A stretch of DNA of 63,319 nucleotides, counting the filler, from Basidioascus undulatus (lineage: Eukaryota): the NCBI GenBank assembly GCA_000826855.1. It is 12 parts of 12 records of this genome, joined end to end, with 100 filler letters (N's around TTAATTAATTAA, not from the genome) between each part and the next. Parts side by side here need not be neighbours in the genome. Positions count along the whole stretch, not along the records: positions 38,751 to 42,183 come from JTLS01002415.1; positions 42,284 to 45,708 come from JTLS01002416.1; 10 more parts are not named here. One strand, given 5' to 3'. Every line of letters begins with the position of its first letter. Position 1 is the first letter of the stretch. Position numbers and translations under genes: made by a program. The notes beneath the pieces were generated by a model. The model was not told the origin of the DNA. It searched no databases and saw only the letters and a program-made list of their open reading frames with translations. This document shows, piece by piece, positions 8,219 to 45,808 of this stretch.

Positions 8219-9057
8219 TGTGGGAGAATGGATTCGTGAAGAGGGGTAAACGGGAGACGCAAGCCGACCTGGACACGATGCGAAATGGCGGTTCAGGGTT
8301 GTTCGGCTGTGCGCTGAGGACAGCTGACGATGTCTACGGCGCGTCCGCGTGACTGTCGAGCGAGTCCGGCGGCTTGCACGGTGGGAGTACCGGGGTACGG
8401 CGATGGGGGGAACGGTAAACAGGAAGGCAGTTGGAGGATGGGAACGATGAACAGGCTTTTCATCTCGCGCTCAGCACGCGACAAGCGCCACTGCTCCCGA
8501 GCCTAATGCTGTTAGCGCCTGTTGGGTCCCTTTTTTGGGCATGCAGAGTAGTCTGTCGAGATTATCATGTAATTGACTACGTCCCCCCTTGGCTCACTGT
8601 TCCCATTGATAACAGTAAGAATGAAACAGCGGGGCATGGTGATGTTCGATTGGCAGGTCAGTTGAACGGGCAGACGGATTCAGCTGCCCCGCGAAAGCTG
8701 ACTGCGCAAGAGGATACCGTGAGACAACACCCCCTCCCGCTCGTCTTCGACATTTGAGGGGGACAGAGTCCGCCGAACACAGCCTTGCGAGTTTGCCAAT
8801 CAAGCATGCGTGCCGATCTGCTTCCGCACCCCGCAGAGTCCACGACCAGGTCAGTTCGCAGGCCCCTGCCTGCTCACCACCATCATCTCACAGTATCGGC
8901 ACACTCATCCCTCGTTCAGATTCCTTCGCAATCCAAGTACAGAGAATCTTCACTGTAAGCTTCACCTCGAACCTTCACTGTAATCTTTCAACCGCGGTAC
9001 CAGTCTGACCGATCACATGGGGCCGAGCAGCTCAATACTCGCACTCTAGCAATCGAG

Positions 9058-9849
9058 ATGAACACTCTGCCGCACGAGCTCCTTCACCCCATTCTTGTCC
9101 TGGCCGTGGAAACAGCGAAATCCGCGTCTGACGCTTCCCAGCTTCTTCTCGTCTCGTGCACTTGGAACGCGATCGCTTTGCCCTTGATCTACACGTCGAT
9201 CGAGCTCGCCACCAGCAAGCAGCGTCTGTCGCTCACGGCTACCCTGACCGGCTCGAGCTCGTCCGTGCTCCGTCATCTGCTCAAGGACATCCGCATCATT
9301 GTATCGGACGGGATGCGCACTCTCGCTCCTCTGCTTCAATCACTGCCTCCGCGCCTTCGCTCGTTCACTCTCGAGCTTAGGAGGGACATCCCCAACAGCG
9401 GATACGCCTATACGGCCGGCTCGCAGGGGATGGATATCATGACCATGGAAAGCCTTAAGGCGCTGAACCCACTGAAGTGCAAGCTGTGCTTCAGCCAGGA
9501 TGAGAGGACCCAGCTCATCCTCTCCATGGCCGTCCGCCGGTGGACGCATCTGTCTGAAGCGGAGCTCGAATTAACGCAGCCCGGATGGGTTCGTGTCGGC
9601 ATGCTCGAGCCTCTTTCCGGTCTCCCCCTTCGCTCGCTTACGCTTCCCATTCCGGATGCTGCGACGTGCAGAAGGGTTCTGTTACTAAACTTCCAGCCGA
9701 GTCTGGATAGCCTTACGCTCCACTTTTGGCCTGCTCTTCCACTTACTCTTGCGAATCCCAACTGGCTTAGACGTCTTTGCGCTGAGATACAGAACGTCGT
9801 CGCAGCCTATGACGGCCCCATCACTGTGCGCTTCGTCAGCTCCGGCTAG
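9058..9849 (+). CDS. Intronless F-box-like hypothetical protein (263 aa)
   Basis: N-terminus LPHELLHPILVLA...LLLVSCTWNAIALPLIYTSIEL matches the fungal F-box-like pattern, followed by LxxLxL leucine-rich segments. Confidence 0.65.
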   Translation: MNTLPHELLHPILVLAVETAKSASDASQLLLVSCTWNAIALPLIYTSIELATSKQRLSLTATLTGSSSSVLRHLLKDIRIIVSDGMRTLAPLLQSLPPRLRSFTLELRRDIPNSGYAYTAGSQGMDIMTMESLKALNPLKCKLCFSQDERTQLILSMAVRRWTHLSEAELELTQPGWVRVGMLEPLSGLPLRSLTLPIPDAATCRRVLLLNFQPSLDSLTLHFWPALPLTLANPNWLRRLCAEIQNVVAAYDGPITVRFVSSG

Positions 9850-24461: not shown

Positions 24462-24561
24462 NNNNNNNNNNNNNNNNNNNNNNNNNNNNNNNNNNNNNNN
24501 NNNNNTTAATTAATTAANNNNNNNNNNNNNNNNNNNNNNNNNNNNNNNNNNNNNNNNNNNN
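24462..24561. other. Artificial contig spacer (N44-TTAATTAATTAA-N44); identical spacers at 28018, 31572, 35112, 38651, 42184, 45709, 49233, 52756, 56279 and 59801
   Basis: Identical 100-nt blocks containing a linker with stop codons in all six frames; genes are cut abruptly at each one. Confidence 0.97.
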
Positions 24562-40858: not shown

Positions 40859-42285
40859 GGTGAGGAGGTGGAGATCGGTTCAGCGCGCTGGGCTGCGGGT
40901 CGGGAGGATGTGTTGTAGTAGGGCATGCGTCTTCGTGGTATACTAATAATGGGCAGCCGCGTATTGAGGCCTTCTGTACTTTCGTGCTTTCGAAAGCGAA
41001 AGAGAACGACCGTTTCTCCACTGTGTGGGGACCTCAGGCAACATCGAAGCTATTCTCAAACATACTTCGGGGAACAAGGGGGCCACTCTCGAACAGGCTG
41101 GTGTAGTCCTGACGGCTGGGTAGGCAATCGTCACAGCCTTTGCGGGTGTTGCTTCTGTTGCTTAGCCAGGTTCGTGACTCTCGGGCTCTAAGGCTGCATA
41201 CAATTTTCAACGAGGCGTCCGAGACGGAATTTGGATCAACAGTGGCTTGCATGGCGGCCAGCGCTGTACTAGATCCGGATCGAGCGGTCGTGCGCCGCCA
41301 AGTGCTTGGAAGGTATGGGTGAAGACAAATTCAGAGATAGCTTGGAAACGGGTGGGAACCGGCAGGCTCACCCGAGAAGAAGGAAGCGATGTGGGCTGTG
41401 AATCATGAGGCGACTGACGGCGCAGTGCAGCCTTGCTCGATTGAGGGGGGATTCAGTACAAGGCAATTGCATACGTACCAAAGCGAGACGTTGGCGATGC
41501 CGGACCGAGAGAAAAATTGGCGATAGTCTCGGTATTTGCTGATTTCTCCCTCAATTCCCAACCACCACCACCACCAACGCACGAAAAAGCTCTGCTCCTA
41601 CCAGCGCCAAGTGCCGGCCGTAGAATAGAGTATATCCCAAAAATTGGCGCTGTCGCAGAAGCGACTGGCACTGCGCGAGGACGTCGCGAATGCCGATCAA
41701 CCCGGGGCGGCCAGACCCCCTTGGTATCACGCACGTTCGGATGCTTTTCTTCGATGCTCCTCCCACTGAGCAAGCCATGGCAACTCCCAGTTCCAGTGCA
41801 CGGGTGACGCATTGAGATGCGGGGACAACATGCTGAAAGTCCAGTTGTGAAACCCAATGCACCAGTTCCTTGTCCCTCCAAGCGTGCCATAACTCCGAGT
41901 CCAAGACTAACAATTTCAAATGTCGCTGCGAGACGCTGAATCCGGCAGCCGTATCAGGATGCAAAGTAAGTTTTGGAAAAAGGCGCATTCGAATAAAGTG
42001 TAGGCAGGACAGGAAAGCGAAGGGCGAAGAGTGAACGTGAACAACAAGTATGCAGTAGTGTCTATGCACATCGGAAGGACAGGACGCCCCGGTCGGCCTC
42101 CTCAGCGCTCGACCACCGCCGCTAGATCCTCGTCCGGGCTTTGATTTCCTTCAGGCCCGCTGCCCGGGTCTTGATGAATAGCTNNNNNNNNNNNNNNNNN
42201 NNNNNNNNNNNNNNNNNNNNNNNNNNNTTAATTAATTAANNNNNNNNNNNNNNNNNNNNNNNNNNNNNNNNNNNNNNNNNNNNCC

Positions 42286-42582
42286 CCTCCGGTAGGCCGC
42301 TCGAGGGGAGGAGCCGTACGACTCGGGGAGATGGAGGTGCATGCAATGGCGTCTTCGGGGCTCATCGGGTCCCTCGTCGAGCTCAAGAATAGGACTGAGG
42401 TAGTACGCGCGCCTGTGTGCTCACGATGCCATAGGATGGCGTACCTGTGCACTTGCGGAAGTGAGGGGGTATTTGTAGACTTCGCACTTCCCATGGGCAC
42501 CATAGCCATGGACTGCGTGAGCGCCATCACCAATGGCCATGCGTTCGAGTATAGCGCACTACCGGAGGGCGAGGGCACATAG
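42286..42582 (+). CDS. C-terminus of a highly diverged multisubunit RNA polymerase beta (RPB2-like) subunit, intronless, 5'-truncated by gap
   Basis: The frame is open from the contig start: PPVGRSRGGAVRLGEMEVHAMASSG (compare RPB2 GRSRDGGLRFGEMERDC), then the clamp zinc-binding CSRC...CTC and a terminal LPMG..MDC segment. Confidence 0.8.
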   Translation, partial: PPVGRSRGGAVRLGEMEVHAMASSGLIGSLVELKNRTEVVRAPVCSRCHRMAYLCTCGSEGVFVDFALPMGTIAMDCVSAITNGHAFEYSALPEGEGT

Positions 42583-42585
42583 TTT

Positions 42586-43215
42586 TCAAAACCCGCGGTT
42601 CCTCACGAGGTAGAGGTTATCCAGTATCGGGTCCACGTTCGGGTCCCACTGTCTGCCAGGCAGGACTGACGATGCCCGCTCTGCGTAGAGGGCCCCCGTA
42701 AGCTCGCGGGACAGCAGGGGCCTCTCTCTGATGGTCGTGGCACCTGGCCATCGCACAGTAGCGAGTCCGTCCTCTTCTATTTTCATACTGACCCCTGAGC
42801 AGTTGACCAGGGTGCCGTCACTATCTGCGTCGTCGTAGAGGTAGCCGCACCCTATGACACTCACTCCCCAGTCGGAAATGACGGCCATCTCATCGGCTAC
42901 GTAAGTGACACTGAATGCGGCGACTGCTGCGGAGATCATTCTCCTCACTCTCCTCGCTACCTCTCTGTCCTGCAGGAGTTTGGCTGCTGTGCACTCCAGC
43001 ACCACGTGACCGATGGACCCTTTCTGAAGCGCGCCGAGGGCACTGGTCAACGACGGGTCACCGAGCTTTGCGTGCACGACTCGCCTGCCTCCCCCTGTGA
43101 GCGCGCGCACCAACATCTGGGAGTTCTCCGGACTAGGCTCTACATGGAGGTACCGGACCGGACTCCTGCCTTTCGAGTCCAGAGAGGCGTTTGTCACCGT
43201 TGTCACCCTCGCCAT
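42586..43215 (-). CDS. Intronless orphan protein (209 aa), probably part of the same virus-like element
   Basis: Single uninterrupted ORF MARVTTVTNAS...DPILDNLYLVRNRGF*; its stop is 3 nt from the RNAP-like stop; codon usage is unlike the GC3-rich host genes. Confidence 0.6.
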   Translation of the reverse strand: MARVTTVTNASLDSKGRSPVRYLHVEPSPENSQMLVRALTGGGRRVVHAKLGDPSLTSALGALQKGSIGHVVLECTAAKLLQDREVARRVRRMISAAVAAFSVTYVADEMAVISDWGVSVIGCGYLYDDADSDGTLVNCSGVSMKIEEDGLATVRWPGATTIRERPLLSRELTGALYAERASSVLPGRQWDPNVDPILDNLYLVRNRGF

Positions 43216-43984
43216 CGAGCTGATCCGCTGGCATGCCGTGGTCTTGTTCCGGTGGGGGGCGCAAGTTCGATAGGGCAATGGCTTCGGGCCGGGTCTATGT
43301 TGCTAGGGAAATTAAGTACAGAACGTGTGTGCCTAGTGTTCACTTGGATAACTTACAGGGAAAGAAGGCTGCCGGCGACCGCAACAGAAACCAAAGGGCT
43401 GTGCCGCAAGCTTGGGGAGATGATCTGGCATCGAGTTCGGTTCGGATGCGGCACTGCGAAGCCAGCGCGGACCAGGGTGTAGGGTTATGGACAACAATGG
43501 GCTTCAAAGAGGGCAAACCTAATGAGTCGGTGGTAGTGGGTCGTTATGGCGGTGAGAAAACCTCGAAAGTGCAACCCAAGCGGCACAGGGAAATCGGTTC
43601 CGTCAGGCAATGCAAAGGAGCGTTCGAGCGCTCAGCTGCCTGGGGCAAGAAGCGTGAATCAAATATTCCGGTGGCTGCAATAAATGGTGTTCAGTGAAGG
43701 ATTTCAAGGCGCTTTCAAGTGAAAGGAAGCCCGCAAGGAAAAGAGCTCAGTGCTGCGCCTGTGCTTGGGAATCACGCTGCTACCGTCCCAGCGAACTACA
43801 AAATGCGGCATGGCTCTCAGAGATGACTTGAAGTGAATAATGCCTCTGAATAGTACACTTTTCACGGTCTGGAATTAGCACCCAAGGTGCGACAATTCTC
43901 CACAACGAGATCCACAGGTCCTACGAAGTACCTCGCACGATCTCAGAACGAGCTAGCCAAAACTCATTCAACGGACTTGGGTCC

Positions 43985-45262
43985 TCAATGCCAGCAAGAG
44001 TTATGTCGAACTTTTATTCCCAGCGCTCCCACAAACACTGAAACCTTGAATACTGGCTTCGCCATTGCACGCTCGCCCGACGGACCCGGGGACGCCACTT
44101 CCCTCAGCTCAGCATTTGCGTGCTCGGGGCGTGGACGGAGTAACCAGACGACGACATTGAAAAGTGCCAAGGAGTCGAGGAGATCAGCCGCATGCGCCTC
44201 TCCAGGCGTCAACTCCTCAAGTGTGTGGTCGCCGGCGTCGAGTGGGACCAACAACGCCCGACGAACACGAGTGAGCGGAGTGAGCGCGGTCTGATAGAAC
44301 GCCTGAATAACTTGGGAAGGAGGATAAGAGGAGTCAACTCGTAAGAAGGCGCACGTACGATGTCCTCCCCAGTCTAGTGGAAGCTCGAGGGAGCTCCCAG
44401 GCGCTCAACAGCTTCACGGCCGTTAAGACCAATCGTCATGTCGAAGCTCTGGAGCAAAGGACAGCGCTTGGCTACACCAGTAAGGGTGTTCCGACGCAAA
44501 GCAAGGGCGGTGATGGCGAGGTGCCGGAGGGCGGGCATGGACAGCTTCTCGAGACAGCTTTGCGTGATGGAGCCAAGTCCGATTAGTTGCTGATAATGAG
44601 GGAGCTGGACGACCAGATCCTGGAGATTGGGAAGACGTGCGGAGCGCACAGGATCTGGACTAATATCGATTAGGTGAAGACGCCTGAGCGATAGGTGGAA
44701 AGGCGTAACGTGGATGCTTGGTCGAGAAAACGACCATGGCCATGTTATGTTCAAGCCGAGAGCTGTGTTAGACCGACGTAGCCCTCCCTCTATATCCTCA
44801 GGGCTTAAATCTCGACCATGGAGCGTGAGCAGCTGGAGAGTCGGACAGCTTCGATACGAGCTCTGTTGGCCATACTGGAATTCCCGTCGGTTGTCGAGGA
44901 CGAAAACCCGTCTCCTTGCTGTTCGAACTCCCTCATAGGTCAATCGTAGACAAGGAAAGGTGCCTAATGGGCGTCTCCTCCGTCAGCCACATGCTCCGGT
45001 GGCGCTCGTTGCAGGTGATAGAGTGACTCGGGAAACGTGGTGCGGAAGAACAGCGCTCACCGCAAGTACTGGAACTTGTCCCCATGGTGCTTTATGTACG
45101 CGCCCGCTCTCCAGCTCGAATTAATGCCGATTTCAGACCGAGCAATAGGGAGCAAAATTTTACGAAGATCAGGGTGCACGAACGAGAGGCAGATGCGGTC
45201 GTGTGGGTCGGCGAAGCTGGCGATTCGAGCAGCGTCTCAGCAGGGAGGGCGAGGAGCGACAT
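43985..45262 (-). pseudogene. F-box/LRR gene with frameshift (pseudogene or sequencing error)
   Basis: MSLLALPAETLLE, then a 1-nt deletion near 45224, then IASFADPHDRICLSFVHPDLRKILLP; downstream LPNLQDLVV, MPALRHLAI and CPLLQSFDM LRR-like repeats; GT-AG introns. Confidence 0.55.
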
Positions 45263-45808
45263 GCTGCTAGAGTTTGAAAGTGGTTTGAGTAGGTAATGTT
45301 AGTGTCAGCAAGTGAGTTGTTAATGTGCGTGTGGGATGATGAAGGTTGGAAGGCAAGGAAGAACGCCGGACCGTCCCGCCTTGCGGCCTCCGGTCGCCAC
45401 CGTGCCTTGCCGACGGATAGACACAGACAGTCCCAGTCGACCCACAAAACGAGCACCATGGCCCAAAGATGCAGGCGCAAGCGAACAATATAAAATCTTT
45501 TAATATAGCCCTCTATGCGGTGTACTGAACGCTATGTCCGCCACTGTCCCTCTGCCAGATCGCCGCCATTTGCTCCCCGCATTTCTTCGCTCGGTTCCAT
45601 CTCTCCCTCCCCCGCCCCGTTCCCGTTCCCCGCTCCCTCCTCCGTCGCGTCCTCCTTATGCCTATTTGCACCCCTTCGCACCCCTTCCCCCCCCCCCCCC
45701 CCCCCCTGNNNNNNNNNNNNNNNNNNNNNNNNNNNNNNNNNNNNNNNNNNNNTTAATTAATTAANNNNNNNNNNNNNNNNNNNNNNNNNNNNNNNNNNNN
45801 NNNNNNNN

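Follow-up and report, generated by a model that had tools for sequence, protein, structure and literature searches.

What is a diverged piece of an RNA polymerase beta subunit doing in a basidiomycete contig, tail to tail with a second intronless open reading frame (ORF) and close to an intron-bearing gene? The question is raised by a contig of Basidioascus undulatus (assembly GCA_000826855.1; JTLS01002416.1) at positions 42284-45708 (3425 bp, GC content 0.571) of the 63,319-nt stretch analysed here, the window. A first-pass annotation had taken the locus for the edge of an integrated large DNA virus or of a killer-plasmid-type element. Our reading, to which we assign a probability of roughly 0.8, is that 42284-43190 (0.9 kb) is a truncated nuclear insertion of viral or plasmid type from a family of compact double-stranded DNA (dsDNA) elements, its source lineage about 7% off an active element resident in the fungus. 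The insertion is probably recent, and the fragment would most likely be without function, element DNA that was captured where a chromosome had broken. It contains the remains of two genes.

42286-42582, plus strand: last 98 codons and stop of a putative element-type RNA polymerase beta (second-largest) subunit, with GRxRGG...GEME and a CxxC-x6-CxC zinc site
42586-43190, minus strand: C-terminal remnant (about 200 codons) of a predicted cap guanine-N7 methyltransferase domain, matching a TFIIS-guanylyltransferase-methyltransferase protein

The beta-subunit fragment and its family

The 83-residue ORF of the first-pass annotation (42331-42582, plus strand; stop TAG at 42580-42582) is indeed open back to the contig edge. 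Its frame begins at 42286 and yields 98 residues, PPVGRSRGGAVRLGEMEVHAMASSG...VCSRCHRMAYLCTCG, i.e. CxxC-x6-CxC, in which a GRxRxGG...GEME clamp-anchor motif and then a four-cysteine zinc ribbon can be read, both aligning to RPC2 and RPB2. The Pfam check proposed at the time returned RNA_pol_Rpb2_7 (PF04560) at E 1.8e-4 and 22.3 bits, a match that stays below the gathering cut-off of 32.1 bits. Among PDB sequences at E<=10, 13 of 16 were RNA polymerase second-largest subunits, the best being yeast RPC2 (E 0.0018); across the yeast subunits, E ranged from 2e-3 to 0.2. Taken on their own, the Pfam and solved-structure matches establish that the observation is real and that the match is weak.

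In a library of 1.84 billion representative proteins, 79 matched the peptide at E<=1e-3, far more than chance would allow, and 20 of these reached E<=1e-10; the best had 49% identity at E 1.2e-17 (P0003, residues 699-790). The long matches are proteins of about 740-860 residues, and the peptide aligned with their very C-terminal end. Of the family's invariant or near-invariant positions that fall within its length, the peptide retains 13 of 13, counted by eye. Since the similarity stands at E 1e-17 to these proteins and at 2e-3 or weaker to cellular subunits, the peptide does not group with fungal RPA2, RPB2 or RPC2. The earlier identification of a beta C-terminus outside those three subunits is thereby upheld, and the alignments support the peptide as a probable member of a dedicated, element-borne family of ~800-residue beta subunits rather than a cellular paralog.

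When the best library match was itself used as the query, 45 clear members of the family came back (E 0 to 2e-89), and after them three beta subunits of ordinary type (E 4e-6 to 1e-4). The recorded contigs of family members reach 41,881 bp, most of them lying between 10 and 37 kb; the one named match is a hypothetical protein of Aspergillus nidulans var. acristatus. Rpb2_6 (PF00562) was found in the last third of all 17 relatives scanned, and beta subunits of archaea and eukaryotes align collinearly, over three segments, with a profile of 51 members (alignment A1; best E 1.1e-32). The family members therefore appear to be complete but compact beta subunits. A search of IMG/VR returned no family member and only giant-virus RPB2 genes, at 21-34% identity over the core; a protein atlas gave generic viral and cellular beta-subunit clusters only, and a literature search that did not extend to supplements found no description of the family.

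The convergent capping gene and the related loci

The minus-strand ORF ends at 42586, 3 nt from the TAG of the beta ORF, so the tail-to-tail packing reported earlier is confirmed. The label of orphan that the annotation gave to this ORF does not survive. Searches with the 230-residue ORF alone recovered neither a Pfam family nor a homolog of comparable length, and it was identified only via related loci. A metagenome collection holds 14 loci of the family (L080-L093), some on contigs of 24-32 kb. In nine loci the window ORF matches the C-terminal ~200 residues of a ~700-residue protein (E 5e-23 to 2e-13). The gene for this protein converges on the beta gene in L084, L089, L090 and L091, the two being 1-69 nt apart, which is the arrangement seen in the window.

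The ~700-residue protein begins with a TFIIS/RPA12-type zinc ribbon with a QxRaADE loop, carries a TCKPDGERxW (KxDG) motif at its centre and has a C-terminal methyltransferase signature, IILDVGTGxGQS...LVEPD. A profile search of PDB recovered the TFIIS ribbon only, and the enzyme domains needed a fold search, for which an AlphaFold model of the L090 homolog was used (overall predicted local distance difference test score 55; 65-88 over residues 400-721). The top seven hits were cap guanine-N7 methyltransferases (Z 14.6-16.0), among them Ecm1, human RNMT, Abd1, African swine fever virus (ASFV) NP868R and vaccinia D1, generic methyltransferases following at Z 12.2 or less. The preceding domain matched the OB domain of the Chlorella virus capping enzyme (Z 10.1, 23% identity). 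Because cap N7-methyltransferases rank at the top and the OB domain is matched as well, the ~700-residue gene is predicted to encode a TFIIS-guanylyltransferase-methyltransferase capping enzyme, the cap-methyltransferase fold having been shown on the L090 homolog and not on the window copy.

In the window copy the alignment begins just past S-adenosylmethionine (SAM)-binding motif I, and the glycine loop and the N-terminal ~500 residues are absent. Motif I (DVGxGxG) is lost: the window reads VTTVTNAS where its relatives have IILDVGTGxGQS. The host junction interrupts the gene within its methyltransferase domain, so that the capping enzyme cannot be produced from the window copy.

The six loci longer than 13 kb have a common gene order, a coding fraction of 0.89-0.98, no introns and a GC content of 0.31-0.49. 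The family-B DNA polymerase (PolB) of the related loci matches PF00136 (E 1e-25 to 3e-35); the protein-primed type, PF03175, was matched once only, at E 8e-4 and below its cut-off. A beta' subunit of 610-655 residues combines Rpb1_2 with the active-site motif HADFDGDE. Pfam also recognised a DUF5906/D5-like ATPase (DUF5906 at 26.4-26.5 bits, just under its cut-off of 27.6), NADAR, RNase H and, in one locus, PIF1. A ~530-residue family with motifs like those of uracil-DNA glycosylase (UDG), read by eye and accompanied by matches at E 0.3, hints weakly at such an enzyme. Core genes of Nucleocytoviricota type, namely PolB, a D5-like primase-helicase, RNA polymerase subunits, a capping enzyme and TFIIS, are thus all present in the related loci.

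Accessory genes vary, examples being Zn_ribbon_3CxxC at L083:13950-14723 (E 3e-16) and the PIF1-type helicase at L089:1139-2587 (E 6e-39). A conserved protein of 370-447 residues (A5: L081:20288-21631, L080:16473-17642, L089:14432-15547 and L091:15094-16260) starts with LPYELISxILSF, which was read by eye as F-box-like and matched the Pfam F-box at E 0.14 in one member only; if this F-box is real, the elements may tap the host ubiquitin system. Three longer gene models (P0054, P0058 and P0067) have a family-B DNA polymerase in front of the ~800-residue beta subunit, an order unlike that of L080, so that in some elements the two genes are adjacent on one strand or truly fused. In L087:511-2253, on a 2.4-kb contig, the beta frame continues past the zinc site into sequence resembling the C-terminus of the capping methyltransferase on the same strand, which may reflect an inversion or an assembly join at convergent gene ends. 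L093:191-1135 is a partial beta fragment (family residues 218-464, 33% identity) beyond which lies sparsely coding DNA with a seemingly split aspartate-semialdehyde dehydrogenase frame at L093:8654-9454; this locus is possibly another insertion of the element family into a eukaryotic genome. A crude search of seven loci for a shared upstream promoter word gave no common motif. ACAACA occurs in 8 of 13 upstream 100-nt regions of L080 against about 1 expected, and words containing CAAC recur in other loci; as an element-specific promoter word it is a weak hint, inconsistent across loci.

Host junction, probable resident element and rival explanations

The remaining features of the target contig and its edge are the following.

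43190/43191, no strand: element/host junction; the host contigs of runs X1 and X2 begin at 43161, and variant contigs match to 43190 only
43191-43302, minus strand: chance extension of the open frame into host DNA, without capping-family similarity and holding the TTG and ATG starts of the ORF finder
44019-45330, minus strand: host-type transcribed gene with three GT..AG introns (44303-44358, 44964-45060 and 45090-45163)
42184-42283, no strand: artificial linker N44-TTAATTAATTAA-N44 between unrelated contigs, the left edge of the target contig

The stretch is present in two independent studies (2014 and 2025; runs X1 and X2), a further run, X3, being from the same sample as X1. On the host side, to the right of 43161, X1 has a contig of 10,886 nt at depth 43.1 and X2 one of 2,529 nt at depth 18.4; the window version of the element part has depths of 45.5 (X1) and 22.6 (X2), near those of the host flank. 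Because the host contigs start 30 nt inside the element sequence, each data set contains, at host depth, words that span 43190|43191, and this speaks against a chimera. The contigs of the two studies support linkage of the element to host DNA at host depth, a linkage that the annotation had wished to see checked; it had looked for the junction at 43.3-44 kb, and the insertion ends at 43190 instead.

The X3 contig of the flanking gene lacks three segments that, with a one-base shift, are minus-strand GT..AG introns of 56, 97 and 74 nt. X3 therefore contains sequence resembling complementary DNA, and the flank holds a spliced, transcribed host-type gene. The annotation had called it an F-box gene with introns. 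The introns are borne out by the spliced contig, and the F-box is not: Pfam found none in either frame, and the N-terminal motif recognised by eye lies in a different frame from the largest one of the spliced form, about 204 residues long, which has a weak match to an F-box-associated leucine-rich repeat (E 0.0014). Elsewhere in the window, on the first contig, an open frame at 8959-9849 (plus strand) starts with MNTLPHELLHPILVLAVE, F-box-like and in the style of the gene beside the insertion; genes with such starts seem common in the B. undulatus genome.

The window as a whole consists of 12 contigs in order of descending length, one of 24.5 kb and eleven of ~3.4 kb, each joined to the next by N44-TTAATTAATTAA-N44; neighbouring contigs are not physically linked, the linkers lying at 24462-24561 and at ten further sites. 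The host assignment presumes that the concatenated contigs share one assembly. On the first contig, a conserved eIF3i exon has a best identity of 78-80% to basidiomycete proteins, and its named matches of eIF3i length (about 310-600 residues) are all from basidiomycetes except one labelled Salix suchowensis, which supports a basidiomycete host. The right end of the target contig (45686-45708) is a run of ~20 C (G on the minus strand) preceded by a G/A-rich low-complexity stretch, probably an assembly break point or a sequencing artefact.

A diverged variant of the element part differs from the window copy at 65 positions in 907 nt (~7%), matches it as far as 43190 and then runs into unlike sequence. 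Its depth is 441.6 in X2 against 18.4 for the host flank (24x), and 23.3 against 43.1 in X1 (0.5x); the same variant bases recur in X1, X2 and X3. The X3 contigs of the variant are one of 2666 nt ending at 42578, four bases before the end of the stop codon, and one of 2241 nt starting at 42597. These two gene-length pieces are split at the intergenic gap, as expected for convergent messenger RNAs (mRNAs). From the contigs, the resident element appears to be transcribed and to vary in copy number between cultures. Among the 39 listed of 72 differences, 30 are synonymous and 28 fall at codon position 3. Because the differences are mostly synonymous, purifying selection would have acted while most of the divergence arose, at a time when the insertion was not yet a dead fragment, and this points to a recent insertion from a related lineage. 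The differences in 42284-43190 comprise about 59-60 transitions and 4 transversions, in both directions; the transition excess fits mainly third-position synonymous change rather than one-sided repeat-induced point mutation.

The proposed course of events is as follows. The parent elements would work outside nuclear control. A minimal beta/beta' polymerase and the TFIIS-capping enzyme would make their mRNAs and cap them, and replication would depend on PolB and a D5-like helicase together with RNase H and a UDG-like factor. Their gene set implies nucleus-independent transcription and capping, as we infer it by analogy with poxviruses, ASFV and yeast cytoplasmic plasmids. A piece of element DNA would then have been captured in a chromosome, and the window copy would have no function of its own, because its capping gene lacks the SAM loop and the N-terminal domains.

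Several points weigh against this reading. In Pfam alone, the window peptide misses the Rpb2_7 cut-off. An organism name, that of an Aspergillus, is attached to only 1 of 48 family matches. Neither a capsid nor a packaging ATPase (double jelly-roll and A32-type) was found in the scanned ORFs (Pfam 19+24+44, PHROGs 31), which are mostly orphans and cover each related contig in part. It was contigs, not reads, that were compared with the window, each with one depth figure that is not a copy number, and the junction rests on contig ends at the k-mer level rather than on spanning long reads. X3 is labelled 'DNA?', its RNA nature being deduced from three spliced joints. The synonymous count covers 39 of 72 differences, 32 being unlisted and one, seen in X1 only, dropped. 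Finally, the observations extend neither to the remainder of the inserted copy nor to a complete resident element.

The inserted copy might also be larger than it appears: a provirus-like copy, much longer and perhaps near-complete, would extend to the left of the contig edge, with no more than its right end in the window. The beta gene does continue there, on a 434-nt X1 contig at host depth (46.3) that reaches 273 nt past 42284, and the beta frame is intact with all its conserved residues. We nevertheless consider such a copy rather unlikely: the capping gene is cut at 43190, which makes the copy incomplete on at least one side, nothing was seen beyond those 273 nt, and none of the other contigs of the window matches a family ORF at E<=1e-3. 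An assembly chimera, in which a short word common to both led to the joining of host DNA and a purely extrachromosomal or contaminant element, might be suspected from the fragmented assembly with its 3.4-kb pieces and from the contigs of both runs breaking within 43161-43190, a stretch common to several element variants. It is improbable, since the host contigs of the 2014 and 2025 studies both start 30 nt inside the element with junction words at host depth, and the exact window version is at host depth, unlike the variant.

Proteins of the family with F-box-like N-termini (A5, by eye, with the single Pfam match at E 0.14) could suggest that the flank with its intron-containing gene belongs to the element, for instance as a captured host gene, and that the junction is internal to a variant. 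That flank, however, has three spliceosomal introns and about 0.8 kb without a contig in the RNA-like run, whereas the family loci are intron-free and 0.9-1.0 coding. It gave only chance-level matches to family ORFs at E<=10, and it lies on a 10.9-kb contig whose X2 counterpart has a depth of 18.4, equal to that of other long contigs (16.7 and 19.4); we regard this explanation as very improbable. Hardly any weight is left for a diverged or decaying cellular paralog of fungal RPB2, RPC2 or RPA2. The GEME motif and the zinc site are common to cellular subunits and the best solved-structure match is yeast RPC2, but that match reaches only E 0.0018 against 1e-17 to the element family, and the peptide's gene lies beside that of the capping enzyme, arranged as the elements have it. 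A truncated insertion from an element family thus remains our preferred reading.

Comparison with known systems

The first-pass identification is supported in its central idea and refined in its details. An integrated element stands, given the dedicated beta family and the linkage at host depth; a giant virus does not fit relatives on contigs of about 22-42 kb, nor does a killer-plasmid type fit a PF00136 rather than a PF03175 polymerase. The significance lies not in the fragment itself but in what it points to: a family of self-transcribing DNA elements of higher fungi that is apparently undescribed and probably active. Its relatives in public assemblies number in the dozens, and the contigs that carry them differ little in size. 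We advance tentatively, at somewhat less than even odds, that these are an undescribed lineage of autonomous ~22-42 kb dsDNA replicons, maybe capsid-less and with a giant-virus-type kit for transcription, capping and replication, hosted by this basidiomycete and at least one Aspergillus; the lineage would be living today, with variable copy number and gene-length transcripts, and would leave fresh nuclear insertions. If so, the lineage would be the first dsDNA virus-like agent of its type in Dikarya. According to Heneghan, Salzberg & Wolfe (2026; PMC13348850), Ascomycota and Basidiomycota have so far yielded no dsDNA virus, and a preprint (bioRxiv 10.1101/2025.04.19.649669) states that none has been isolated from fungi. 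The family could then offer a tractable system for self-transcribing DNA elements, as a culturable fungus with public runs appears to exist, and a very small multisubunit RNA polymerase for study.

With RPA2, RPB2, RPC2 and archaeal Rpo2, the element beta subunit has in common GRxRxGG...GEME, the C-terminal zinc ribbon, GHGQKG and a collinear domain order. It differs from these cellular subunits in its length of about 800 residues, its reduced outer domains and the position of its gene beside capping and replication genes.

The four-subunit polymerase of baculoviruses comprises LEF-8, LEF-9 and the capping enzyme LEF-4, and these viruses have a TFIIS-like factor, LEF-5. A small pair of beta- and beta'-like subunits, a capping enzyme and a TFIIS-like zinc ribbon are thus common to both systems, and the N-terminal ribbon of the capping protein gave weak Pfam matches to Baculo_LEF5_C (E 8e-4 and 6e-3). 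In contrast, the element beta subunit keeps the cellular-type end with GEME and zinc ribbon and matches Rpb2 models, not LEF-8; in the protein atlas, LEF-8 appeared in one low-ranked cluster only, on 33% of its members. Hosts and genome sizes also differ.

The likeness to Nucleocytoviricota extends over PolB, the D5-like helicase, beta and beta' subunits, the TFIIS-type ribbon, guanylyltransferase with cap-N7-methyltransferase and the UDG-like protein. The proteins closest to the L090 model in fold include ASFV NP868R (Z 15.4) and vaccinia D1 (Z 14.9), and fragments occur in fungal nuclear DNA. Myers et al. are said to have described endogenous Nucleocytoviricota copies in early-diverging fungi. 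Gong et al. (2020; PMC7017919) place endogenous giant-virus genes of fungi in early-diverging, non-Dikarya phyla. The differences are that contigs of the relatives are about 22-42 kb, that beta has about 800 residues against >1100, a third shorter, and that TFIIS is fused to the capping enzyme. The Nucleocytoviricota-type capsid and A32 ATPase were not matched in the scanned ORFs, PHROGs giving nothing useful for the 31 orphan ORFs. Of mirusvirus hallmarks, no HK97-fold capsid or herpes-type module turned up in the general Pfam scans, no dedicated search having been made.

The yeast cytoplasmic linear plasmids (pGKL2 type) were compared by description, not by sequence. Their RNA polymerase is a beta/beta' fusion, and their capping enzyme is not known to have a methyltransferase. 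In PMC13348850 they are described as having a protein-primed polymerase fused to a terminal protein and a size of about 9-16 kb. Both systems are small fungal dsDNA with an RNA polymerase, a capping enzyme and a helicase of their own and no known capsid, with a copy number raised and variable relative to the nucleus, and with pieces integrated in nuclear genomes. The relatives of the fungal element differ in having a PF00136 polymerase, a D5-like helicase, separate beta and beta' genes and a methyltransferase domain. Should the proposed lineage hold, it would bear on the origin of yeast killer-plasmid transcription genes, which are thought to derive from giant viruses, and would be a candidate for connecting the yeast cytoplasmic plasmids with giant viruses.

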